A stretch of 63,392 nt of DNA, the filler included, from Basidiobolus ranarum (taxonomy: Eukaryota): the NCBI GenBank assembly GCA_040143965.1. It is 28 parts of 28 records of this genome, joined end to end, with 100 filler letters (N's around TTAATTAATTAA, not from the genome) between each part and the next. Parts side by side here need not be neighbours in the genome. Positions count along the whole stretch, not along the records: positions 27,288 to 29,457 come from JASJQH010003684.1; 27 more parts are not named here. One strand, 5' to 3'. The position numbers were made by a program, and so were the translations under genes. The notes under the pieces are model-generated. The model was given only the letters and a program-made list of their open reading frames with translations. It made no database searches and had not been told where the DNA came from. Shown here piece after piece: positions 7,017-58,358 of the stretch; within the stretch, counting starts at the first letter, position 1; each line of letters opens with the position of its first letter.

Positions 7017-7363
7017 TGTTAAAGTATTTGCAAGCCTGTTGGAAGTGGTTTGGAGAATTAGAGGAATTTGTGGTTTTCACTTATTGATTTATTGAGTAGA
7101 AAGTTGACATTTATAGTTTTGTCAAGATGTAAACAAACTAATATGTAGAATATGTTAAGGAAGGTCCTGGCAACATGTGTGCAAAGTTTGGGGCTTCTAG
7201 CACAAGTTTGAAAAATCTATATATCTGAGAACTTCTAAGTTTGTAAAGTATTCTAAGTAAATTCCAATTGAGAATAATTGATAATATCTTAGTGAATTAT
7301 AAGATAACTAAGTATTAAGCTATATATGACTATATAGGTGTTTAGGCAATGCTAATTTCAGCA
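7017..7363 (-). repeat. Solo LTR, Copia family A (~347 bp)
   Basis: TG...CA ends; flanks CTCTT/CTTTT, a 5-bp TSD with one mismatch. Confidence 0.85.
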
Positions 7364-7504
7364 CTTTTATGCCTTAATTAATTAGTTTCTTTATTGCAAT
7401 AACTTATATTCACACATAAACCACTTGGATTATATGTAAGTTTATATAAGTTCTAATCCTTTCCCCCAAAGCTAAATAATTCCAATTTTGCTCTGTGATG
7501 GTAC

Positions 7505-7851
7505 TGTTAAACTATTTGGGAGCTTGTTTGAAGTGGTTTGGAGAATTAGAGAAAATGGTGGTTTTCACTTGTTGATTTATTGAGTAAAATGTTGACATTT
7601 ATAGTTTGGTCAAGTAGTAAGCAAACCTACATGTGATATATGTTAAGGAAGATCCCAGGAACATTTATGCAGAGTTTGGGGCTTCAAGAACAAGTTTGAA
7701 AAATCTACAAACCTGGTAACTGCCAAGTTGCTAAAAATATTTTCAGTAAATTCTGATCAAGAATACTGGATAATATCTTAGAGAAGTGTAGGATAACTGA
7801 ATACAAAGCTATATAGGGCTATATAGGCATTTAGGCAATGCTAATTCAACA
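7505..7851 (-). repeat. Solo LTR, Copia family A
   Basis: TGTT...AACA ends; flanks GGTAC/GATAC. Confidence 0.85.
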
Positions 7852-8518
7852 GATACATCCTGACTTACCAAAATTGAATTTTATCCCTTTTGAGGTCACC
7901 TTGCACACAGATATTAAATTCTTGGCAATATCTAGGACATGTAGTATATCTTGAAAGTATACACTTTCTCTTCAGTAGTAGCAGTAAAATTGAATTTAAT
8001 TGCTCCTATTCCAATGTCAACAAGTGTATGGTCATCTCCCAGGAAACTTTTGTAATTGGGATTTCTTTGTAATCCACAAACTAATGTTTTTCAAATGTGA
8101 TATGATTGGAGGCTCCAGAATCAATATGCCACATGAGAGAATCCTTGTTGGTAGTCATAGTTAGAGCAGATATGATCAAATGATCCTTTGTTGTGACTGT
8201 ATTTATAGGTTTAGTATGTTTTTCTTCTTTGGCAATTCTTTAATAGCACTCTTGGCTTAAATGGCCTGTTCTTTTGGAGTAATCACACAGTATGTTACTT
8301 TTCTTCATATAGTGTTTGTTCTGACCTTGTAAGGATGGTTTCCATAGCCTATTAAAACATTTTCTTCATTGCTTAGGTTAAATCCTCACTGGCATAAGTC
8401 TTCATCCAGGAGCCTGTCAAACTTTCAGTTCTTGATTATAGAGCCATTACTAAGCTGTAAAACTTGTGTGGCAGGCTATTTGATTTGTAACTACAATCTC
8501 CTGATCAATAGTGGGTAC

Positions 8519-19528: not shown

Positions 19529-19600
19529 GGGCTCAACCGGGAATTGAACCCGGGACCTCCACGACCCGAACGAGGAATCATACGACTAGACCATCGAGCC
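19529..19600 (-). tRNA. trnP-CGG: tRNA-Pro(CGG)
   Basis: 72-nt cloverleaf GGCTCGA...TT-CGG-GT...GGTTCAATTCC...TTGAGCC-C followed by a poly-T terminator; one T:T mismatch in the anticodon stem. Confidence 0.9.
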
Positions 19601-27287: not shown

Positions 27288-27958
27288 AGCAACTAAAAGC
27301 TATTCTATTCTGGCATGTACAGAGCCCATTATGTGAAGTTCAAGGCTTTGACAGATTTGGAAGGAAACATTGTTTGGTTTAGTGGGCCACATCCAGGGAG
27401 ACACCATGACAAAGGCTTTGGGTAGAGAGGCATGCACCATTTGTAATACATGAGAAGACTATGGCTGATTTGGCATATGTTGTGGAAGAATGCAGAAGGC
27501 TAGGATGTGTCACAGCTAACAAGATGCCCAGAGGAGGGATACTCACAGAGAGGCAAAAGCTTTAGTATGACATTTTTTCCCATTTTAGAGCAAAAGTAGA
27601 GCATAGCTTTGGTTTCTTAAAGAGATAAAACATTGTAGCAGGAAAGTAGAGAGGAAAATTATTTTGTAGGCCTCAATTGAGGTTAGGCAAAGTAGTCAAA
27701 ATCTTGATTAATTCTCAATACATTCATACTCAAAGATATCCATTGAGAGCTCTAGATTTAAGACACTATGAATAAAGCTTTCATCATCTTATGAATGTGC
27801 ATTAATGTATAAAAGTACCTTACAGAAATATACAACCAAAGTAAAATAAACTGTTTCCAAAATGGTAAATAACATTGTGCCAGATAGTGCCCAATCATGC
27901 CAATTTGTGCTGGCACACTTTTTAGCTGGCCTGATCTGGCTCAATAAAACAGAACAAG
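27288..27958 (+). mobile_element. Harbinger-type transposase C-terminus and probable element end
   Basis: YSGMYRAHYVKFKALTDLEGNIVWFSGPHPGRHHD...RAKVEHSFGFLK; TGTGCCA/TGGCACA subterminal motifs ending GAACAAG. Confidence 0.75.
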
Positions 27959-28268
27959 TCTATAGCTTAGTATTTAGCTTTCTTTTAATTTAATAAGATA
28001 TTATCTGTTATTCTCAATTGGATTTTACTTGGAATATTTTTACCAACTCAGAAGCTCTCAGATATATAGACTTTTTGCACTTGTGTTAGAAGCCCCAAGG
28101 TTTGGACACATTTCCCCAGGACCTTCTGCAATACATTTGACATGTAAGTTTGTTCACACCTTGAAAAAGCTACAAATGTCAACTTTCTACTCAATAAATC
28201 AATAAGTGAAATCACCAACTCAGTAATTTCCACAAACCACTTCCAGCAGGCTCCTAAATACTTGAACA
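27959..28268 (+). repeat. LTR family A, 5'-truncated
   Basis: Ends AAATACTTGAACA, like other family-A LTRs. Confidence 0.8.
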
Positions 28269-28269
28269 T

Positions 28270-29047
28270 TTATAGCATGGATCCATAGTAACTTGCAAGT
28301 ATCTAATATCCACCTAACTGCTATAATTTGATCAGATCCATGATTATGAAGATAATGACACATAACTCCCAAAGATTAAACAATATCTGGCTATGTCCCC
28401 ATCATGCTTTACATCAAGCTACCAACCATATATCAAAAAGAGAAATTTCTGGCTTTCATTTTAAATCACAAGCATCTGATCTAAGCCATTTTTGGTCCAG
28501 TTAAGATTTGTCTCTGTTGGGATAGATATGGGATTACATTTTTCACATTTCAAACTTCTCTAATATATCCATGGTATACAAAGATTGGTTAAAGTTATTG
28601 TTTTTGCAGTTATATATATTGTAAATTGGATTACATTATAGTGTATCAGTTCACCAAGATTAGTCATTTTCAATTTGGCAGATAAGCTGGATTTGGTTTA
28701 CTCCAAAGTCTTCAAGTCATTGGTTGGTATAATAAGGTCACCTACATATAAGGATAAAAATCCTAGGTCTATCTTATCTGGCCTGAAGTACATACTGAAG
28801 TCAGCTTGGCACTTTTGGAATTTGAGCGCATCCAAAAAAAACATCTTTCTTGCCATTCCAAGCTCTTGCAGATTGTTTTAAGCCATCAAGTGTTTTCCAT
28901 ATTCTGTGGAATACAACTTAGATTATCTTCAAATACAGTAAAAGCTAATATTTGCAAGTATCCCAAGTCTCTGAACAACTTCCTTGAGCACATAGCTTCT
29001 TATATAGTAGCAGTAGCAGCCATATACTCTGCTTCTGTTGTGGAAAG
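28270..29047 (-). mobile_element. Scrambled Copia RNase H and RT fragments
   Basis: LSTTEAEYMAA...FEDNLSCI lies upstream of LSLYVGDLII, so the normal RT-then-RNase H order is reversed. Confidence 0.8.
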
Positions 29048-29329
29048 TGTTGAAAGTCTGGTGACTTGTGGTACAAGCAGTAATTCCCAAAGAGGAAAAT
29101 ATGGAGTATGGTGACTGCATCTGGACACAAAGTCTAAGGCCAATCAGTTTCTTGTATAGCTGAAATGCCAAAGTACTGTACATTGACAGACTGGGTTAAG
29201 GTTCCCTGGCAATATAGGCATCACATACAAGGGCTGGTAGCTCAGTGGTTAGAGCACTTTGCTGGAGTGAAGGAGGCCCCAGGTTCAAATCCTGGCCAGA
29301 CCAATATTTCTCCCTAAATAATTTCAACA
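29048..29329 (-). repeat. ~282-bp LTR-like element (family E) containing a tRNA-like unit
   Basis: Inverted ends TGTTGAAA/TTTCAACA; a second copy at 34093-34342 shares one boundary in different flanking DNA. Orientation inferred from similarity of the ends to other LTRs here. Confidence 0.7.
29231..29303 (+). ncRNA. tRNA-derived Pol III unit (pseudo-tRNA) inside the LTR-like repeat
   Basis: 73-nt cloverleaf with A box TAGCTCAGTGG and B box GGTTCAAATCC; perfect D and T stems; imperfect acceptor and anticodon stems; loop CT-GGA-GT. Confidence 0.75.
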
Positions 29330-30316
29330 AAAAACGTGCTATATGTGCCTGGGATAGCAAAATATTTGTCATCAGTGAGTAAAGCAACATCTGAGGGATA
29401 TTGCTTTAATTTTGATCAAAATGGCTGTACAATCAGGGATCAAAAAGGGAATTACATNNNNNNNNNNNNNNNNNNNNNNNNNNNNNNNNNNNNNNNNNNN
29501 NTTAATTAATTAANNNNNNNNNNNNNNNNNNNNNNNNNNNNNNNNNNNNNNNNNNNNGAAGACTGAAACTAGGATTAAGGGAAGACGGAGTTGCCTATGG
29601 AAATGATGCGCTAATGAGGACAAAGTGGGACTAGTGTAAGCGATACTAGTCTATGGTGATGAGCCATACTTCGATGCATCAAGCATGCAGGCCTATTTGC
29701 GGTAAGACATATGCCGACTGAAGGAGGCTTGGCCTCCCCCTTTTGTCGAATATTTAAAACATTGATAAAGAGTTTGAATTGAAACAAAGCAGATAACAAT
29801 TCAGTGCTGAGATGTATTCTATGCTGTTGTGTGTAATCCCTGACTTCAATCTTCTAATGGGGTTTTGCATACTCATGGCTGTAACGAGACCATTAACTTA
29901 TCTCTGATCTTTGTAAATCATGAACATATCAACTGCTTATGTAATGCGAGTCAATTATTAGACTTGACATGGTGCAATTTTTTTGGACCGTTTTGAGCAC
30001 ATTTGATGTAAGGTTCGATAGACTCTGGCGTCAGAAGCCGTCACTTGATTTTCTACTGTCTGTTCCAGGAACCTCTTGCAAGAATTTTTATAGATTCCGC
30101 CTTCTTTTATGGAAAATGACTCCATAAGTTTGTCCAATAGTACACAGTTTATGATTTTTAAATCCAACGTATCCACATATTGGGTGTTTTTGGCGTATTG
30201 ATGAACTTCCGAAGAGAAATAAGGGCAAAAATGGAAGTATCACTTCAATCAAAGATTGCTATATAGGTAGTGTATTTCTAAAACAATCAACTCATCACAC
30301 AAACTAATTCACAGAT

Positions 30317-34092: not shown

Positions 34093-34342
34093 GGCCAGGA
34101 TTTGAACCTGGGACCTCCTTCACTCTAGCAAGGTGCTCTAACCACTGAGCTGCCAGTCCTTGTATGCTATGCCTATATTGCTAGGGAACCTTAACCTAGT
34201 CTGCCAATGTATGGTACTTTGGCATTTCAGCTATACAAGCAACTGATTGGCCTTAGACTCTGTGTTCAGATGCAGTCACCATACTCCACATTTTCCTCTT
34301 TGGGAATTACTGCTTGTACTACAAGTCACCAGACTTTCAACA
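34093..34342 (+). repeat. Second copy of the tRNA-containing LTR-like element (tRNA-like part 34093-34159, minus strand)
   Basis: Reverse complement of 29048-29297; ends ACTTTCAACA; loop reads CT-AGA-GT. Confidence 0.75.
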
Positions 34343-35209
34343 TATAATACACATGTTCTGGATCAAAATTTGATCTGATGTGATATTCAGATGCAAAATG
34401 GGGAAGAGATACTGAAGAGAGGAGATCTACAACAGGATACTTAATACTTTGCTGTAATGGAGCTATTTCTTGGAATTCAAAGAAACAACCTACCATAGCT
34501 CTTTCAACAACAGATGTTGAATATATGGCTGCCTGTGAAGCAACAAAAGAAGCAATATGGCTTAGAAAACTCTTAACAGATTTGGGTTATTCTCAAAATT
34601 GACCAACAACAATATTTTAAGATAATCAAAATGGTATCAAATTAGCTAAAAATCCCACATTTTATAATAGAAGCAAACACATAGATATTAAGCATTATTT
34701 CATCAGAGAGACTATAGAAAATAAGTTTATTGACTTAACTTATTGTTCTACATAAGATATGATTGCTGACATATTAACCAAACTATTTGCTGCATAGAAA
34801 TTTAAGAAATTTAGACATTTATTAGGATTAGTTGATCTGACTATTTAGTAGTGGGAGATCATTGATATTAGCATTGCCTAAACACCTATATAGTCATATA
34901 TAGATTAGTACTTAGTTCTCTTATAATTCACTAAGATATTTTTCATTATTCTCAACTGGAATTTACTTGGAATATTTTTTTTGCAACTTGAAGTTCACAG
35001 ATATAGAGATTTCTTCAAACCTGTGCAAGAAGCCCCAAACATTGCACACATGTTCCTGGGACCTTCCTTAACACATTGTATATGTTAGTTTGTTTACATC
35101 TTGACAAAACTATAAATGTCAACTTTCTACTCAATAAATCAATAAGTGAAAACCACCAATTCCTCTAATTCTCCAAACCACTTCCAACAGACTCCCAAAT
35201 ACTTTAGCA
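34343..35209 (+). mobile_element. Copia RNase H, PPT and 3' LTR of family A (34860-35209)
   Basis: YSDAKWG, RRSTTGY, ISWNSKKQPTIALSTT, SKHIDIKHYFIRE, MIADILTK; PPT AGTGGGAG. Confidence 0.92.
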
Positions 35210-35211
35210 AA

Positions 35212-35760
35212 TTTTAATTGAGAATAATGGATAATATCTTAGTGAATTATACAATAACTAGGTACTAAGCTATATATGACTGTATAGGTGTTTAGGTAAT
35301 GCTAATTTCAATAAGAATAACTTACATTCACACCAAAACCTTCGTAGATTGTGTGTAAGTTTGTATAAGTTCTGATCCTTTACTCCCAAAGCTAAATACT
35401 ACCCATTTTTATCAGTGATTGTGTATCCTGACTTATCAAAACTGAATATTAGCCCTTCTGAGATGGCCTGGCATACAGATATTAAGTTCTTGGCAATATA
35501 TGGAACAGGCCGTACATTCTTAAAAGTATACAATTTCTCTTCAGAAGCTCCAGTTAAATTGACTTGAATTGTTCCCATTCCAATGGCATTCAATTTGTTG
35601 TCATCTCCTACAAAAACCTTTCTAATTGGGATTTCTACATAATCCACAAATCAATGTTTTTCATTTGTGAGATGTTAGGAGGCTCCAGAATCAATACACC
35701 ACATCTAAGAATCCTTGTTGATAATCATAGATAGTGCAGATATGAACAAGTGATCTTCTG
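35212..35760 (-). mobile_element. Partial family-A LTR plus Copia protease region
   Basis: WCIDSGAS; KNVRPVPYIAKNLISV. Confidence 0.8.
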
Positions 35761-35779
35761 CTGTAACAACATTTCATAA

Positions 35780-36258
35780 TGTCTTAATAAGGAACTGGCA
35801 AGGACTGGAAACAGAGACAAGAGGCTGAAAAGCTGATGGGTACTTGAATATAGACTACAAGGCAAGACAAGACAAGACTGGACAGTGAAAATACTTTGGC
35901 AAGAATCCTTATTGTTTACTGGCATTGATCAGACTGAGGTCTGATCAAGGAAAATAGGGAGCTTGTATAGATGTTTCAGAGTGAAATGTAATGTACAGAA
36001 TAGGGAATATGCTGTGGCAAGTTCAAGTGTTGGGCTGTTGGGGACTGCAAAGACCATTACAAAAGGGGATGATATAAGGATGATCATGTGCCTTTCCATG
36101 CAATTCTTGCAGGAAATATACTGGATGAACTGGCACAAAGTTGCCAAGAAAGTGTTAAAGTATTTGGGAGCCTGTTGGAAGTGGTTTGGAGAATTAGAGG
36201 AATTGGTGGCTTTCACTTATTGATTTATTGAGTAAAAAGTTGACATTTATAGTTTTGT
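35780..36258 (-). repeat. LTR family D fragment with a family-A LTR (36153-36258) nested in it
   Basis: Matches 17938-18103 and the family-A end. Confidence 0.7.
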
Positions 36259-37525: not shown

Positions 37526-37896
37526 TGTTGAAGTTTATTGTCTTTATCATATTGGTTATCTCTATCTTTATGCACCTAACTACTTCATATATCATGTATA
37601 AGTCAGTTAAGATTACTAAGTCAAATATCACTTAACTGCAAAGCTAAACATATACGCTATATATATATCAATATTGTGAGAATTAGCAATTCCCTATTGG
37701 AAAATTCAAACATGTCCAAATTTCCCCAAAGATAGCTCGTTTTACTCCCACAGATGTTCTGAACACAACCCCAGCATTAGTTTTCTGTACTTCCACCAAA
37801 ATAAATAAATGCTTCATTTCTGGACAATAAATAATTATATCACAAAGCTATTAACAACTCCAATGTTCTCAAGTACCTCCAAACAGCCCTTATTTT
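37526..37896 (+). repeat. LTR family B
   Basis: Starts TGTTGAAGTTTATTGTCTTT; interrupted near its end by a family-A LTR. Confidence 0.85.
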
Positions 37897-38339
37897 TGTT
37901 GAAGTTAGCATTACCTAAACAACTATATAGTCATATATAGCTTAGTACTTAGTTATCTTATAACTCACTAGGATATTATCAATTATTCTTGATTGGAATT
38001 TACTTGGAATATTTTTACCAACTAAGAAGCTCTCAGATATATATATTTTTCAAACTTGTGCTAGAAGCCCCAAACTTTGCACACATGTTCCTGGGACCTT
38101 CCTTAACACATTCTACACATTAGTTTGTTTACATCTTGACAAAACTATAAATATCAACTCTCTACTCAATATATCAATAAGTGAAAACCACCAATTCCTC
38201 TAATTCTCCAAACCACTTCCAACAGGCTCCCAAATACTTTAACTGGTTATGAGCCCTGAGCTTGCACTCTCTGTAATGTCTACTTCTCAAATTTATGGAG
38301 CTTTTCCCTCTTCTGAAAAATTGGATGGAACCAATTATC
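37897..38339 (+). mobile_element. Copia family A 5' end: LTR 37897-38244, PBS and gag start
   Basis: The LTR is followed directly by GGTTATGAGCCCTG, then MSTSQIYGAFPSSEKLDGTNY. Confidence 0.9.
38245..38258 (+). promoter_or_regulatory. Primer-binding site complementary to the anticodon arm of tRNAiMet (half-tRNA priming)
   Basis: GGTTATGAGCCCTG is the reverse complement of CAGGGCTCATAACC, as in yeast initiator tRNA; same type as Ty5 and Drosophila copia. Confidence 0.85.
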
Positions 38340-46844: not shown

Positions 46845-47575
46845 TATTGGGAAAATATGGGCTGTTTGGAGGAACTTTAGAAAAGTGGAGTTGTGAATAT
46901 CTTTGTGAGACAACTATTTAGTGTCCGGAAATAAAGCATTGATACATTTTGGTGGAAATACAGAAAACTAACACTGGGGTTGTGTTCAGAACATCTGTGG
47001 GAGTAAAATGGGCTATCTTTGGGGCAATTTGGATGAGTTTGAAATTTCCAATATGGAATTGCTAATTCTCACATTATTCACATATATATATAAATATGTT
47101 CCAATTTTCAGCTAAGTGATATTTGACTAAGTAATATTAACTAACTTAAATGTGATATATGAAATAGTTAGGTGTATAAACATAGAGAAAACAAATATGA
47201 TAAAGACAATAAACTTCAGCACTCCCACTCAACTAAATACTCATATATCTTAATCCTAACTTAAATCTTAATTCTTCAAATTTTGGCTTGAGTAATGGTT
47301 TGGTAAGGATGTCAGCAATCATATCCTCAGTTGGACGGTACTCCTGTTGGACATGCTTATTCTCAATAGCTTCCCTAACAAAGTGATGTTGAATATTAAT
47401 ATGCTTACTTCTAGCCTGAAATTTGGGATTTTTTGCTAAAGAAATACAACTTTGATTATCCTTGAAAATTATGGTGGGTGAAATTTGAATAATGCCCAAG
47501 TCTTTGAGCAGCTTCCTTAACCACATAGCCTCCTTTGTTGTATGTGATGCTGCCATGTATTCTGCTTCAGTTGTT
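46845..47575 (-). mobile_element. Copia family B 3' end: RNase H (47233-47575), PPT and LTR (46845-47221)
   Basis: KEAMWLRKLL, SKHINIQHHFVRE, MIADILTKPL; PPT TTGAGTGGGAG. Confidence 0.93.
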
Positions 47576-49936: not shown

Positions 49937-51893
49937 CTTAATTGCCCCTTGCAAGCAAAAGCCCAGGATATGGAAAAACAAAAGCTACAATACTCTGAAG
50001 GTTGTTGACTTATTTCATGTGGCTTATCCTGTGTTTTTGCAAGCAAATAGCAATTGGGCAAGTACATGCATATTCATGGGATGTCTCCCATATATACACT
50101 ATTATCAACTTGGAAAAGAAAGAAAAGTAGCCAAAGATGCACTCAAGGTGCAGGAAGTTGGTAAACTAAAGAGACAAGCTATGGAGGTTTATTGTCTTTA
50201 TCATATTGGTTATCTCTTTCTTTGTACACTTAACTCTTTCCAATGTAACATATAATTTAGTTAAGATTACTTTGTCAAATATGACTTAACTGCAAGTTGG
50301 AACATATATTTTATACATATGTGAATAATATGAGAATTAGCAGTTCCATATTGGAAATTTCACACTCATCTAAATTGCCCCAAAGATAGCTCATTTTACT
50401 CCCACAGATGTTCTCAACAACCCCAGTGTTAGTTTTCTGCATTTCCACCAAAATGTACAAATGCTTCATTTTTGGACAATAAATAATTATCTCACAAAGC
50501 TATAGTCCACTCCACTTTTCTAAAGTTTCTCAAAGCAGCCCATATTTTCCTAATAAAAGCAAAGAAGCCAGTGAGTTTTGGCTCTACTGTTCCACTTACT
50601 AAATTATGAAATGCCATTGCAAAGATCTATACTTGCAAAATCAGATATACTGGCATAATGGCTTAATTTTACCATGCAACCAAGCACATCAGCTGGAAGA
50701 GTGCTAATTAGGCAACTTATCTAACACCTAGCACCTCTCAACAAACCAAAACAACAGCAAATAGGACTCATTGCACTCCAATTCCAACTGATACTTTGCA
50801 AAGTATAGGTTGAGCTAATTTCAACACTTTGAAATGTACCAATTGAGGCTGGAGAGCCATGAGTTTTATTTGATGGTGTTTGGGCTTGTTGAGAGGTGCC
50901 AGGCATTGGATAAACTTCCGAATTTAGCACTCTCTCAATTGGTGTACTGGTTCCACGATGAAATCAAGCGTGTTGACCAGTATATCTGACTTGTAAAATA
51001 CAGATCTTTGTAATGGTGCAAAGAATTTGATAAGTGGGATAGTCAAACCTAAACTCACTGTCTCCTTTGCTTTTCCCTTGGGTTTACTAACTTCCTGCTC
51101 GTTGAGTGCTTCTTTAGCTGGTTTTCTCTCTTTGTCAAGTCAATAGTTGCGTATATTCCTGAGATGTTTCATGAATAGGCCTATACTTGCCCAATTGCCA
51201 TTTGCTTACAAATACCCAGCATAAGTGACAGGAAATAAGTCAAGAACCTGCAGAGTAATACCTGGTTTTTGGTTTTTCCACAATTGGCTCAAATTAAGGC
51301 AATTTTGGGCAAGATTCAATATAGCTTCCAAACTGTTAAATCACTTATCAGCAGAGCAAATGATGGCAGCTCTGACAACCAGAGCCTTTTGGTTTGCTGG
51401 TTTTCCTACAAGATTCTGACTTACCTGTGCCCAAGCAACTTTGAGTTGTTGTGTAGGCTTAATGGTCCAACACAGACTCTGCTCTGCTAGATTGTCAGAG
51501 TGATGCTCATATATATGGTGTGGGATTGATTGAAATTCCATATGAGAATGGATGGAGGAAGCAGCATGCTGCTGTAGCTCATGTATACAAGTCATTATGG
51601 TGTTCTGCCTGCAACTCACTTGTTGTACTAATACTATTCAAGTTTTCCACAAAGGGTTGTTCAATATTGAGCAAAGTAGCCATATTAAAGCTCACTGGCT
51701 TGACAGTGTTTTGGTTGAACTTTGCTCAACTATTAACTTACTACATAAATGGGGGATTACAATCTCTTCACTTGCACTATTGCTGGAAAGGAACACATCT
51801 GGTAAATGATAAATGCTTTATCATTACTTGAGCTAGTTTCTGGCATGTTAATGCAATCCAAAGTGGATAGCGAATTGTAAGACTGCTCATCAA
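49937..51893. mobile_element. Two opposed CACTA ORF2 fragments (+ to ~50790, - thereafter), with a solo family-B LTR at 50180-50555
   Basis: Homologous to 32400-33650; LTR flanked by CAAGC/AAAGC. Confidence 0.75.
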
Positions 51894-54458: not shown

Positions 54459-56618
54459 CAACAATGATTATGAGATGTGGTATATTGATTTTGGAGCTTC
54501 CTCACATTTCAGAAATGAAAAACATTGGATTGTGAAATATGAACAAATCCCAATTAGAAATGTTTTCATAGGAAATGACCTCACATTGGATGCCATTGAA
54601 AAGGGAACTATTCAAGTTACTTTAACTGGAGCTTCTGAAGAGAGAGTGCATACTTTTAAGAATGTTCTACATGTCCCAGATACTGCCAAGAACTTAATAT
54701 CTGTATGGAAGGCCTCCTCAGAAGGGCTAAAATTCAATTTTGATAAGTCAGGATGCACCATCACTGATCAAAATGGGAATTATTTAGTTTCAGGAGAAAA
54801 GGATCAGAATTTATACAGACTTACATACAATCCAAGAGGTTTGTGTGTAAATATAAGTTTTTCCAATCAAGAAACTATTCTACCATGGCATAGGAGATTT
54901 AGCTATGTTGGACTTGATTATTTTTGGGAAAATTTGGGCTGTTTGGAGGAACTTAAGAAAAGTAAAGTTGTGAATAGCTATGTGAGATAACTATTTATTA
55001 ACCAGAAATTAAGCATTTATATGTTTTGGTGAAAATACAGAAAACTAACACTGGGATTGTGTTCAGAACATCTGTGGGAGTAAAATGAGCTATCTTTGGG
55101 GCAATTTGGATGTGTTTGAAATTTCCAATATGGAATTGCCAACTCTTGCATTATTCACATGTATATATGAAATATGTTCCAATTTTCAGTTAAGTGATAT
55201 TTGACAAGGTAATGTTAACTAACTAATAGGTGATACATGAAGTATTTGGTGAGTCAGTAGAGAGATAATAAACATGATAAAGAAAATAAACTTCAACAAT
55301 TATTTGCGCAAAATGATCGAAAATCACCTAATATCTGGAATTCAATTTAACCTCCCAACCAAAGTGGAAATTTGTGAGGGTTGTATATATGAGAAACCAG
55401 TTAGGTAATCATTGAAGAGCTGTTGTTTAATCAAATCTGTCAAAAAATTGGATCTAATACATTTAGATTTGAGTGGACCTATGCAAGATTTATCTTTAGG
55501 TGGAAAAAGATATTTAATCACATTTATTGATGACTAGACCTGATACACATGGGTCTACTTTATTGAAAGAAAAGAAGAAGCACTCTCTATCTTTAGAGAT
55601 CTTAAAACACTTGTGGAGACTCAAACTAGAACTAAAATCAAGAAAATATGTAGTGATGATGGTGGAGAATATACTTCAATATTATTTATGCACTTTTGCA
55701 AAGTTCATTGAATCAAGCAAGAAACTACTGCCCCCTATCCACCTCAGCAAAATGGAGTTGCTGAAAGGGCTAACAGGACTTTAATAGAAGTGGTAAGATC
55801 TATGATAAATGCACAAAATTTATCTCATAACTGTTGGGTGGAATCTGTTGCTACAGCTGTATATCTGAAGAATGAGAGTTTTACTAGGAGTCTGTCTAAC
55901 TCCACACCATATCAAGCTTGGTTTGGAGTTAAATCTGATGTAAAATATTTGAGGATCATTGGATGCATTCCTTATGTCAAATCTATGACCAAAAATTGGC
56001 CTAAATGTGCTCCAAAAAGTAAAAAATGCATATTTATGGGTGATTGTACTCAAACTAAAGCTTATAGACTGTATGATACCAAGATTTTTAAGTTTATCAT
56101 GTCCAGGGATATTTTGTTTGATGAAACTGAAAAACTTTGATCCAAAATGACATTAGATCATGACAAAAATGAATTTTCTTATGATCCAATCATTCAAATT
56201 TATTCAAACCAAAACAATGAAGAAAGTAGCATTCCTGTAGACCCTTCAACCAACATTTTTCATACTGCAGTGCCCAGTAAAATGCTAGATGTTGTAATAC
56301 CTGTATCACAAAACAAGATATCAAATTCATTCAGAAATAGCCCTGAGTATTATACCAGTGAGTCCCAAAGTTAAGTCTATGCATACATAGCTGAAATACA
56401 TGCACCCCAGACTGTAAAAGAGGCCCTGAATGGCCCTTGCAAAAATTTTGGAGATCTGCAATGGTTGATGAGGAACAGGCTTTGATTGATAGTAAAATTT
56501 GGATTACAACCAACTTACCTGATGGTAGAAAGCAATTGGCTGCTAATGGGTGTTTAAATTAAATTCAGCTCTGATCGCAACATAGAAAGGTACAAGGCTA
56601 CACTAGTAGCCAAAGTCT
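54459..56618 (+). mobile_element. Copia pol (protease, GAG-pre-integrase, integrase, RT start), degenerate
   Basis: WYIDFGASSH, WHRRF, CEGC, HLDLSGP, PQQNGVAERANRTL, KKCIFMG, SRDILFDE. Confidence 0.95.
54922..55298 (-). repeat. Solo family-B LTR with a perfect 5-bp TSD
   Basis: ATTAT at 54917-54921 and 55299-55303; removing the LTR and one TSD restores GLDYLRKMI. Confidence 0.9.
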
Positions 56619-57344: not shown

Positions 57345-58358
57345 CTAAATGCAATCTTCTTCACCGCCACTGTTATCATTAGGATTAGGGTCACGATAGA
57401 ATGGTGCGCTACCCAAACATTCTGGCAAGTTCACCAAATTCCAACCACGACCTTGAAGATATTCAATAGCGCGTTGAGCAAGAGGAATAGTTTTGGAGTA
57501 ACTTTCTGGTCTGAAATCGGTGGTGGTATTCCAAACGTCATGATTTAAGGAGATGAATTTACCTACTTCAAGATCAGTAGGTCCAGTTTGTTCCACGTAC
57601 TCTTCATACATCTCATCGATTGTATTGACTGGATCCCAATCCACAGGATCTACATTCCAAGTTACAACGGTATAACCCATACGTTTGAGAATCTTCAGAG
57701 CGGAAGCATCGGTGTCACCATAAGGCGGTCTCATACAAGTAGGTACCTTACCGAGGACTTTAGCGAGAGCATGATTTAATCTGGTCATTTCATGGACGAC
57801 TTCATCTTCATCAACCGTGATTAAATCCGTATGAGCCCAAGTATGCGAGCAAATTTGATGACCAGCATTATAAGCACCTTTCACCACATCTGAAAGTTGA
57901 TAAATACTTAAGGTTGGATTTAAAGTATCAGCATTCTTTTCATTCAATCCATTCACGAAAAGGGTGGATTTCACTTTTTTAGTTTCTAAATAATCCAATA
58001 ATCCCGGAGTAAGAACACTTGGTCCATCATCGAATGTTACCGCGAATGTTCCTGGTTTTGTGCATCTGGTGATGACTTGTGCTTTAGTTTTATCATCGCA
58101 TCCACCGTAATTTTTTTGACATTTAGTGCCACAATGATCCGAGGTATAACCACAGTATCCCCATTGACTGCAGCATAATTCTGCTGCACAAGAGCCATAT
58201 TTAGCACCACACTGTTCGTCTAAGTACTCGATAGGTGGAGTAGTGGTAGCTTTTGAAGTAGTGCTAGTGGTAGTTTTAGCAGAGGTAGAGCTAGTGAGCG
58301 CCCGTGCACTTGAAGAAGTGGTAGATTGTCCAGTGCATGTAGAACTGATACAAATGTA
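57345..58358 (-). CDS. Chitin deacetylase (CE4/NodB) with an N-terminal CBM18 and S/T-rich linker
   Basis: Open frame 58358-57345. CBM18 QCGAKYGSCAAELCCSQWGYCGYTSDHCGTKCQ; motifs TFDDGP, HTWAH, RPPYG, DPVDW, LNHD. The start codon is not resolved. Confidence 0.92.
   Translation of the reverse strand, partial: YICISSTCTGQSTTSSSARALTSSTSAKTTTSTTSKATTTPPIEYLDEQCGAKYGSCAAELCCSQWGYCGYTSDHCGTKCQKNYGGCDDKTKAQVITRCTKPGTFAVTFDDGPSVLTPGLLDYLETKKVKSTLFVNGLNEKNADTLNPTLSIYQLSDVVKGAYNAGHQICSHTWAHTDLITVDEDEVVHEMTRLNHALAKVLGKVPTCMRPPYGDTDASALKILKRMGYTVVTWNVDPVDWDPVNTIDEMYEEYVEQTGPTDLEVGKFISLNHDVWNTTTDFRPESYSKTIPLAQRAIEYLQGRGWNLVNLPECLGSAPFYRDPNPNDNSGGEEDCI

Follow-up and report, generated by a model that had tools for sequence, protein, structure and literature searches.

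A long terminal repeat-like unit with a tRNA-derived module in Basidiobolus ranarum, a probable relic of a Helenus-type retrotransposon

Introduction

Cassandra, said to have been described by Kalendar et al. in 2008, is reportedly a terminal-repeat retrotransposon in miniature (TRIM) of plants whose long terminal repeats (LTRs) hold an RNA polymerase III (Pol III) promoter derived from 5S rRNA. Here we analyse a 282-bp LTR-like unit that carries a tRNA-derived module and lies at positions 29048-29329 of a 63,392-nt stretch of DNA (the window) from the fungus Basidiobolus ranarum, which NCBI places in the phylum Basidiobolomycota. The window consists of 28 contigs of 2157-2179 bp each, sorted by length and joined through N/TTAATTAATTAA/N spacers, across which features are not linked. 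A preliminary description of this DNA had presented the unit as a tRNA-based counterpart of Cassandra in a fungus and knew of no fungal precedent. The first part of that proposal agrees with the Copia-type LTR ends and the sense-oriented A/B-box module documented below; the second does not hold, as Helenus elements of rusts and Agaricomycetes have already been published (PMC10886601).

Helenus elements are miniature LTR retrotransposons of 311-1263 bp with tRNA-derived LTR sequence in which the A and B boxes are conserved (Kojima 2024, Biology 13:119, PMC10886601), and together with Cassandra and Ajax they form the 'TRIMp3' group of that paper. Its fungal section comprises 113 families, found in the Pucciniales as well as in Agaricus, Coprinopsis and Amylostereum; they are mobilised by Copia, generate target-site duplications (TSDs) of 5 bp and are in many cases known solely as solo LTRs. 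Their primer-binding sites (PBSs) are common to Copia, most often being ggttatgagccc, of the anticodon-loop type of the initiator tRNA, and the GGTTATGAGCCC type of PBS is complementary to the anticodon region of that tRNA, as in rust Copia and Helenus elements (PMC10886601, Figure 3). The fungal Helenus LTRs printed in the paper follow one layout, in which a tgttg start is followed by a variable part, a sense-oriented tRNA-like part and a tail of approximately 25-45 nt ending in aaca. LTR lengths range from 106 to 284 bp among the Pucciniales rows in the first part of Table S1, and by our count 4 further printed fungal LTRs, one of them possibly incomplete, fall in or near this range. Anticodon and body of the tRNA parts mostly disagree, with whole families being called tRNA-Ser-AGA, short variable arm included. 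The same paper reports no complementarity between the tRNA part of the LTR and the PBS, and according to its Discussion Pol III transcription is unshown for Helenus itself, whereas Pol III transcripts of Cassandra are stated to have been demonstrated experimentally (PMC10886601).

Results and discussion

A discrete unit present in two copies

We interpret the unit as a solo or broken LTR of a Copia-dependent retrotransposon of the Helenus/'TRIMp3' type with a sense-oriented tRNA module, and assign this reading a probability of roughly 0.6; membership in Helenus is not proven. The kind of element is most likely one that has already been described, fungi included, the novelty here being its occurrence in Basidiobolomycota. 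Two copies of the unit, both of which hold the tRNA part and each of which is inserted in a different Copia element, were identified in the window. Copy 1 (29048-29329, + strand) is complete, spans 282 bp from TGTTGAAA to TTTCAACA, has a GC content of 44% and contains no CpG dinucleotide. Copy 2 (34093-34342, - strand) comprises the first 250 nt of the unit and stops within the T arm, where the contig itself ends; positions 34342-34093 align to 29048-29297 with 93.2% identity over 250 bp. The second copy is thus as previously reported, with one shared boundary in different flanking DNA.

The 2 boundaries of the unit are supported by separate lines of evidence. On the left, the homology between the copies ends exactly at TGTTGAAA (the 5' terminal inverted repeat, 29048-29055, + strand), beyond which the flanks are unrelated. 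On the right, TTTCAACA, the last base of which is 29329, is the exact inverted complement of the left end, and independently of copy 2, homology to Copia starts at position 29330, directly after TTTCAACA, in both protein and DNA comparisons. From this position onward the sequence matches 3 other Copia gag/pre-integrase fragments in the window (KNVLYVP), with DNA homology being lost just upstream. Since the left end is fixed by the 2 copies and the right end by the start of Copia homology, the unit can be regarded as a discrete 282-bp element, in agreement with the extent and ends first assigned to it. Internally, it consists of a U3-like part of 183 nt (29048-29230, + strand), which has no Rfam match and nothing similar elsewhere in the window, the tRNA-derived module (29231-29303, + strand) and a U5-like tail of 26 nt (29304-29329, + strand) with a single TTT run (29307-29309) and the end TAATTTCAACA. 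An ATATAG motif is found approximately 20 nt upstream of the tRNA part in copy 1. The interior of the unit has no match to other repeats in the window.

These boundaries bear on the possibility that a tRNA pseudogene or a tRNA-derived short interspersed nuclear element (SINE) entered an unrelated repeat on a single occasion and that this repeat then spread by segmental duplication or passive copying, the 8-bp ends being coincidental. Such a scenario is consistent with the presence of merely 2 copies, 6.8% apart and both in accumulations of Copia remains, with the lack of a recognizable TSD and with the tRNA part being no better conserved than the rest. However, we consider it improbable, because the homology between the copies stops exactly at TGTTGAAA next to unrelated flanks, and the other end stops at the exact inverted complement, at the very point where Copia homology begins; by our estimate, chance alone would place a matching 8-mer no more than a few bases from a given point approximately once in 10,000 cases. 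Moreover, neither poly-A nor a SINE body nor internal direct repeats surround the 73-nt module.

The tRNA-derived module

The module is a class-I cloverleaf of 73 nt with the anticodon GGA and 2 non-pairs, G3:A70 and G31:G39. ARAGORN called positions 29231-29303 (+ strand) as tRNA-Ser(gga), and the Rfam model RF00005 matched the module along its full length (model positions 1-71 of 71) with a score of 56.8 bits and an E-value of 1.4e-10, supporting the cloverleaf recognized in the preliminary description. Its A box (TAGCTCAGTGG, 29238-29248) and B box (GGTTCAAATCC, 29282-29292) are both canonical and intact in copy 1. The minimum-energy fold of the module is the cloverleaf, with an energy no better than that of shuffled sequences (z 0.41). 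The module is located between both ends of the unit in copy 1 and within the shared homology in copy 2 (tRNA part 34095-34151), where the anticodon is AGA rather than GGA. Despite the Ser anticodons, the variable region is short in both copies, and the innermost non-pair of the anticodon stem is the same in both, so that the shared stem defect, the triplets and the short arm noted earlier are all confirmed.

A functional tRNA gene that was duplicated together with conserved flanks would explain the covariance-model score of 56.8 bits and the intact A and B boxes of copy 1, yet this explanation is extremely unlikely. tRNA-Ser identity needs a long variable arm, whereas here a Ser anticodon resides on a class-I body without such an arm, the stems contain 2 non-pairs, and the two copies disagree in their anticodon. 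Copy 2 has also lost U8. Neither a CpG nor a run of 4 or more T residues that could serve as a Pol III terminator is present, in contrast to a genuine tRNA-Pro(CGG) gene of the window (19529-19600, - strand), which is located on a CpG-normal contig, has kept its CpGs and is followed by T6 three bases downstream. The hallmarks of a functional tRNA-Ser gene, namely an extended variable arm, stems paired throughout, a constant anticodon and a terminator for Pol III, are thus all lacking, and the module is not a normal tRNA-Ser, as had been suspected. The Rfam score of the genuine tRNA-Pro gene (46.8 bits) is nevertheless lower than that of the decayed, LTR-borne module (56.8 bits). By analogy with Helenus, the tRNA part is best seen as a putative promoter relic and not as a working tRNA. 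Searches for further Rfam tRNA matches in the window at E-values up to 1 returned none; the Copia LTRs are thus without a tRNA-like part.

The module had also been described as a complete Pol III unit, a term which does not hold: between the end of the tRNA part and position 29410 there are TTT runs but no run of 4 or more T residues, so that a terminator is missing.

Relationship to the resident Copia elements

The ends of the unit had been likened to those of the Copia LTRs in the same DNA, and this comparison is well founded. Two Copia families with recognizable LTR ends and PBSs are present in the window. The LTR of family A (TGTTGAAG...CTTTAAC, 37897-38243, + strand) is followed by the PBS GGTTATGAGCCC at 38245-38256 and the start of gag, and the LTR of family D (TGTTGAAATTAGG...TTTTATCA, 48594-48244, - strand) by the same PBS at 48243-48232 and then gag/protease. 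The 12-mer GGTTATGAGCCC has exactly 2 perfect matches in the window, each directly after an LTR end and preceding a gag frame, and it matches the sequence with which most of the internal regions printed for fungal Helenus begin (PMC10886601). In the sense orientation, the LTRs of both families start with TGTTGAAATTAG, with those of family A ending in ...CCCAAATACTTTAACA (...TTTAACA) and those of family D in ...CACTTTTATCA. One end of the unit has TGTTGAAA and the opposite end ...AAATAATTTCAACA in common with the resident Copia LTRs, which are approximately 345-350 bp long. Family A, with a repeat of approximately 345 bp and at least 9 occurrences in the window, is a candidate for the autonomous helper type.

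Families A and D resemble the unit in size class and in the motif at their termini (5' TGTTGAAA... and, for family A, 3' ...TTT(C)AACA), but differ from it in having a dissimilar interior without a tRNA-like part and in being joined to a PBS and gag. The resemblance raises the question of whether the unit is itself the LTR of an autonomous or large non-autonomous Copia lineage, the latter of the large retrotransposon derivative (LARD) type, which would be transcribed by Pol II and carry the tRNA or SINE piece as a passenger, rather than the LTR of a miniature Helenus. The ends, the length of 282 bp, which is near that of the resident Copia LTRs, and the ATATAG motif upstream of the tRNA part are all compatible with such an LTR, no internal region is visible that would prove the element to be short, and tRNA-like pieces have been noted in 'not a few' Repbase LTRs, only some of which belong to TRIMs (PMC10886601). 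Even so, we regard this explanation as rather unlikely. Neither a PBS nor a polypurine tract (PPT) links the unit to Copia coding sequence, the adjacent Copia pieces beginning in mid-open reading frame (ORF), one as antisense RNase H and the other as KNVLYVP; the 183-nt U3-like part matches no other LTR of the window; and the position of the tRNA near the 3' end, followed by a short tail, is the anatomy of a Helenus LTR (PMC10886601).

The inverted ends could alternatively be those of a miniature inverted-repeat transposable element (MITE) in which the tRNA-like piece is incidental. The perfect 8-bp inverted ends and the small size would suit a MITE, and the contig of copy 1 also contains, at 27288-27760 (+ strand), a fragment resembling a PIF/Harbinger-type DDE transposase (…GNIVWFSGPHPGRHHDKGF…), as read by eye from the six-frame translation. 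This origin is nonetheless very improbable: the ends correspond to the TGTTG...CAACA motif of the resident Copia LTRs, which is not a known MITE end, the inverted repeat stops at 8 nt without further extension, short of the usual 10 nt or more, and copy 1 is not flanked by a duplication of TA, TTA or 8-9 bp.

Two further repeat arrangements were noted among the Copia remains. Two family A LTR copies are located 144 bp apart (7017-7853), and since the spacer between them is a Copia gag fragment without PBS or PPT, they represent nested debris rather than a miniature element. Family B, a repeat of approximately 375 bp (2346-2723, 37526-37896, 50184-50556 and, on the - strand, 54924-55298 and 46845-47288), starts with TGTTGAAG after a shared purine-rich stretch, TTAGTTGAGTGNGAG, and its end is not CA (…ATTTTCC…).

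Comparison with Helenus and other described systems

The unit was compared with the Helenus consensus sequences by eye. At 282 bp it falls inside the range of the Table S1 rows covered (106-284 bp), and it has TGTTG...CAACA-type ends; the tRNA module with A and B boxes is situated toward the 3' end of the LTR, with a short tail behind it; a Ser triplet resides on a short-arm, non-functional tRNA body; and the unit occurs as a solo LTR in association with Copia elements using the GGTTATGAGCCC primer site (PMC10886601). Given that mismatches between anticodon and body are known in Helenus, the seemingly odd Ser triplet on a short-arm body can be considered a trait of the class. Among individual families, Helenus-1_AmAr has ends (tgttgaaa...tttcaaca) identical to those of the unit and a nearly identical acceptor stem and D arm, Helenus-2_PTrit ends in ...aattcttttcacctgagtaatttcaaca (...taatttcaaca) compared with ...aatatttctccctaaataatttcaaca in the unit, and Helenus-9_PSt and Helenus-6_CroRib, both of which are 'tRNA-Ser-AGA' families of Table 2, share the anticodon loop ctagagt with copy 2 (PMC10886601).

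The unit also departs from Helenus in several respects. Its host belongs to Basidiobolomycota, whereas the fungal hosts in Table 1 and the Results of PMC10886601 are all Basidiomycota; however, only relatives of seed genomes were screened in that study, so that the absence of a host from its list is not evidence of absence. A second LTR, an internal part, a PBS, a PPT and a 5-bp TSD were not seen with the unit, its tRNA part is followed by T3 instead of the T4 run of the printed P. graminis Helenus LTRs (PMC10886601), and its copies are fully CpG-decayed.

Similarities to other systems are more limited. Like Cassandra, the unit harbours within an LTR part of a small-RNA gene whose Pol III promoter is internal, but the module derives from a tRNA in a fungus and not from 5S rRNA in a plant, and Pol III transcription, stated to have been demonstrated for Cassandra, is hypothetical for the unit. 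tRNA-derived SINEs (SINE2) are likewise non-autonomous, interspersed elements with a tRNA-derived A/B-box part. However, their tRNA head stands first and is followed by a body and by a tail that is A-rich or resembles a long interspersed nuclear element (LINE), their TSDs vary in length, and they depend on LINE machinery, whereas in the unit 183 shared nucleotides precede the tRNA part, the ends are TG...CA inverted repeats, and the sequence terminates in TTTCAACA without such a tail. With LTR elements targeting tRNA genes, which include Ty1 and Ty3 of yeast and reportedly Tj1 of S. japonicus (PMC4600332), an LTR end is likewise found near a tRNA sequence. There, the tRNA sequence is a chromosomal gene that is not part of the LTR, whereas in both copies of the unit the tRNA part is found between the ends.

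Evidence weighing against a Helenus-type LTR

Several observations count against the Helenus-type interpretation. First, a run of at least 4 T residues, absent after the tRNA part of the unit, is present in all 6 of the printed P. graminis Helenus LTRs (PMC10886601); a weak T-run would, on the other hand, suit a transcript that has to read out of the 5' LTR. Second, conservation does not single out the tRNA part. The comparison of the A and B boxes with the rest that had been proposed beforehand was run on the tRNA part and revealed 5 differences in 67 nt compared with 12 in 183 nt elsewhere (Fisher p 0.78), i.e., no extra conservation, and in copy 2 the A box lacks its initial base.

Third, the insertion itself is poorly delineated. 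The preliminary description had found no TSD, PBS or internal domain, and none is apparent beside the unit: copy 1 has no 5-bp TSD (GAAAG on the left, AAAAA on the right), which is weak evidence, as it comes from a single copy, copy 2 being without one of its ends. Copy 1 is flanked by two Copia fragments that are unrelated to each other and oppositely oriented, namely an RNase H fragment on the left (LSTTEAEYMAA..., 28910-29047, - strand, antisense to the unit) and a gag/pre-integrase fragment on the right (KNVLYVPGIAKYLSSVS..., 29330-29457, + strand), which is not contiguous with the former. The lack of a TSD together with the unrelated, oppositely oriented flanks indicates that the copy 1 locus did not arise by insertion alone but is rearranged or chimeric; ectopic recombination may have produced it, or the contig of approximately 2.2 kb may have been misassembled. 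As a more general observation, chimeric contigs may have arisen from repeats as long as the 282-bp unit.

Fourth, paired LTRs, a PBS, a PPT and an internal region were found beside neither copy, each of which is alone on a 2.2-kb contig, and there is consequently no internal region beside either of them that would tell a miniature element (TRIM) from a long one. Neither GGTTATGAGCCC nor TGGTAGC adjoins copy 1, the flanks of which are Copia coding fragments, and the sequence immediately upstream, GTGGAAAG, is located within an RNase H codon run and contains no clear PPT. Because a PBS and a PPT are not expected next to a solo LTR, their absence is uninformative rather than contrary.

Fifth, the orientation of the unit is not given by its ends. 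Their similarity to the Copia LTRs leaves the sense strand ambiguous (6 versus 5 at the 3' end, 0 versus 7 at the 5' end), and in the test of the 25 terminal bases an equally high score is reached by 40 of the 828 25-mers of the window that end in AACA. The + orientation, with the tRNA in sense, is adopted by analogy, following the anatomy of Helenus LTRs. On the opposite strand, the reverse-complemented tRNA might be taken for an over-long PBS resulting from tRNA read-through during reverse transcription; this alternative was rejected, as the sequence does not follow the 3' end of an LTR, CCA is missing and the Helenus anatomy explains the layout.

Finally, copies are few. Just 2 are present in the window, where a sensitive BLASTN search (word size 7) revealed neither a third one nor an 'empty' LTR devoid of the tRNA part, and exact-pattern scans of public contigs yielded no outside copy. 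In these scans, 2 conserved 21-22-mers of the unit were both searched against public genome contigs, with no match for either, and against metagenome contigs, with no match for the first pattern; the sole metagenome match of the second pattern is an unrelated, GC-rich, coding-like contig and represents a chance match.

Age and decay of the copies

Fifteen of the 17 differences between the copies are transitions. Six of these 15 are TG/TA or CA/TA exchanges, 3 of them CTGG versus CTAG (29070, 29101, 29193, 29208, 29238, and 29264), and constitute a component of the decay unrelated to CpG. The CpG observed/expected ratio is below 0.2 in 19 of the 28 contigs (pooled 0.06), including those of copy 1 (27288-29457) and copy 2 (34093-36258). 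Extreme CpG loss is limited to such transposon contigs, the remaining 9, genic contigs having ratios of 0.47-0.88. In the CpG-poor contigs, TpG and CpA are in excess (approximately 1.35) and TpA is at 0.78. The combination of CpG depletion, TpG/CpA excess and a TpA value of 0.78 points to deamination of heavily methylated CpGs in repeats; repeat-induced point mutation (RIP), also considered as the cause of decay in the CpG-poor contigs, is ruled out by these same values. With no CpG left and a divergence of 6.8%, both copies appear to be old, methylated relics rather than active elements and most likely represent LTRs, solo or broken, whose CpGs have decayed and which are embedded in Copia debris.

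The 5' end of each copy adjoins antisense Copia RNase H sequence, the 2 flanks belonging to different Copia families. In the case of copy 2, this is a fragment at 34343-34602 (+ strand; YSDAKW...LSTTDVEYMAA), and the junction is 165 bp further upstream in Copia coordinates than that of copy 1. The shared context may be due to chance (n=2) or may hint at an insertion preference.

Proposed mechanism and significance

A mechanism for the intact element can be put forward by analogy; the roles as insulator or as source of a small or primer RNA that were suggested earlier are likewise hypothetical. The A and B boxes would recruit TFIIIC and RNA polymerase III, and transcription would start from the tRNA module of the 5' LTR, which would define the beginning of R. 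Without terminating at the weak T-run, the polymerase would continue past the 26-nt tail, transcribe a short internal region that holds a PBS and a PPT, and finish in the 3' LTR. Copia reverse transcriptase and integrase, acting in trans, might copy and insert this RNA, with the integrase recognizing the TGTTG...CAACA ends, and subsequent LTR-LTR recombination would leave solo LTRs such as those proposed here.

A Helenus-type LTR in Basidiobolus would not introduce a new principle. If confirmed with intact copies, it would extend LTR retrotransposons bearing tRNA promoters from Basidiomycota to an early-diverging fungal phylum and bear on whether tRNA-bearing LTR elements originated repeatedly or are ancient. 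In the open literature, a scope which leaves most subscription journals and Repbase outside, we found no description of such elements in Basidiobolus or other early-diverging fungi. The Ser-AGA-type anticodon loop, the acceptor stem and D arm close to those of Helenus-1_AmAr and the end motifs shared with basidiomycetes, all as judged by eye, would allow a bolder proposal, which we nevertheless regard as quite doubtful: that the relics, found in Basidiobolomycota, represent the first LTR retrotransposon of the Helenus type, bearing a Pol III promoter, from beyond the Dikarya. In that case, either the age of fungal Helenus would greatly exceed the approximately 130 million years proposed for the rust lineage and predate the split between Dikarya and Basidiobolus, or the elements would have been transferred horizontally from one fungal phylum to another together with their Copia helper.

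There is also a practical aspect to the module. In rust genomes, Helenus copies account for most of the predicted tRNA genes of certain types, e.g., 481 of the 492 tRNA-Thr-AGT calls in P. triticina (Table 2 of PMC10886601). Because the decayed module outscores a genuine tRNA gene of the window, over-counting of tRNAs is to be expected in Basidiobolus-like assemblies; annotation pipelines will call such modules tRNA genes, and masking them before tRNA annotation is advisable.

Other features of the window

One of the genic contigs carries, at 57345-58358 (- strand), an ORF for a chitin deacetylase with a chitin-binding domain (PF01522 and PF00187). The protein is 64-90% identical to paralogues from B. 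ranarum and B. meristosporus, its best 15 matches are all from Basidiobolus, and the paralogue family has many members in that genus.

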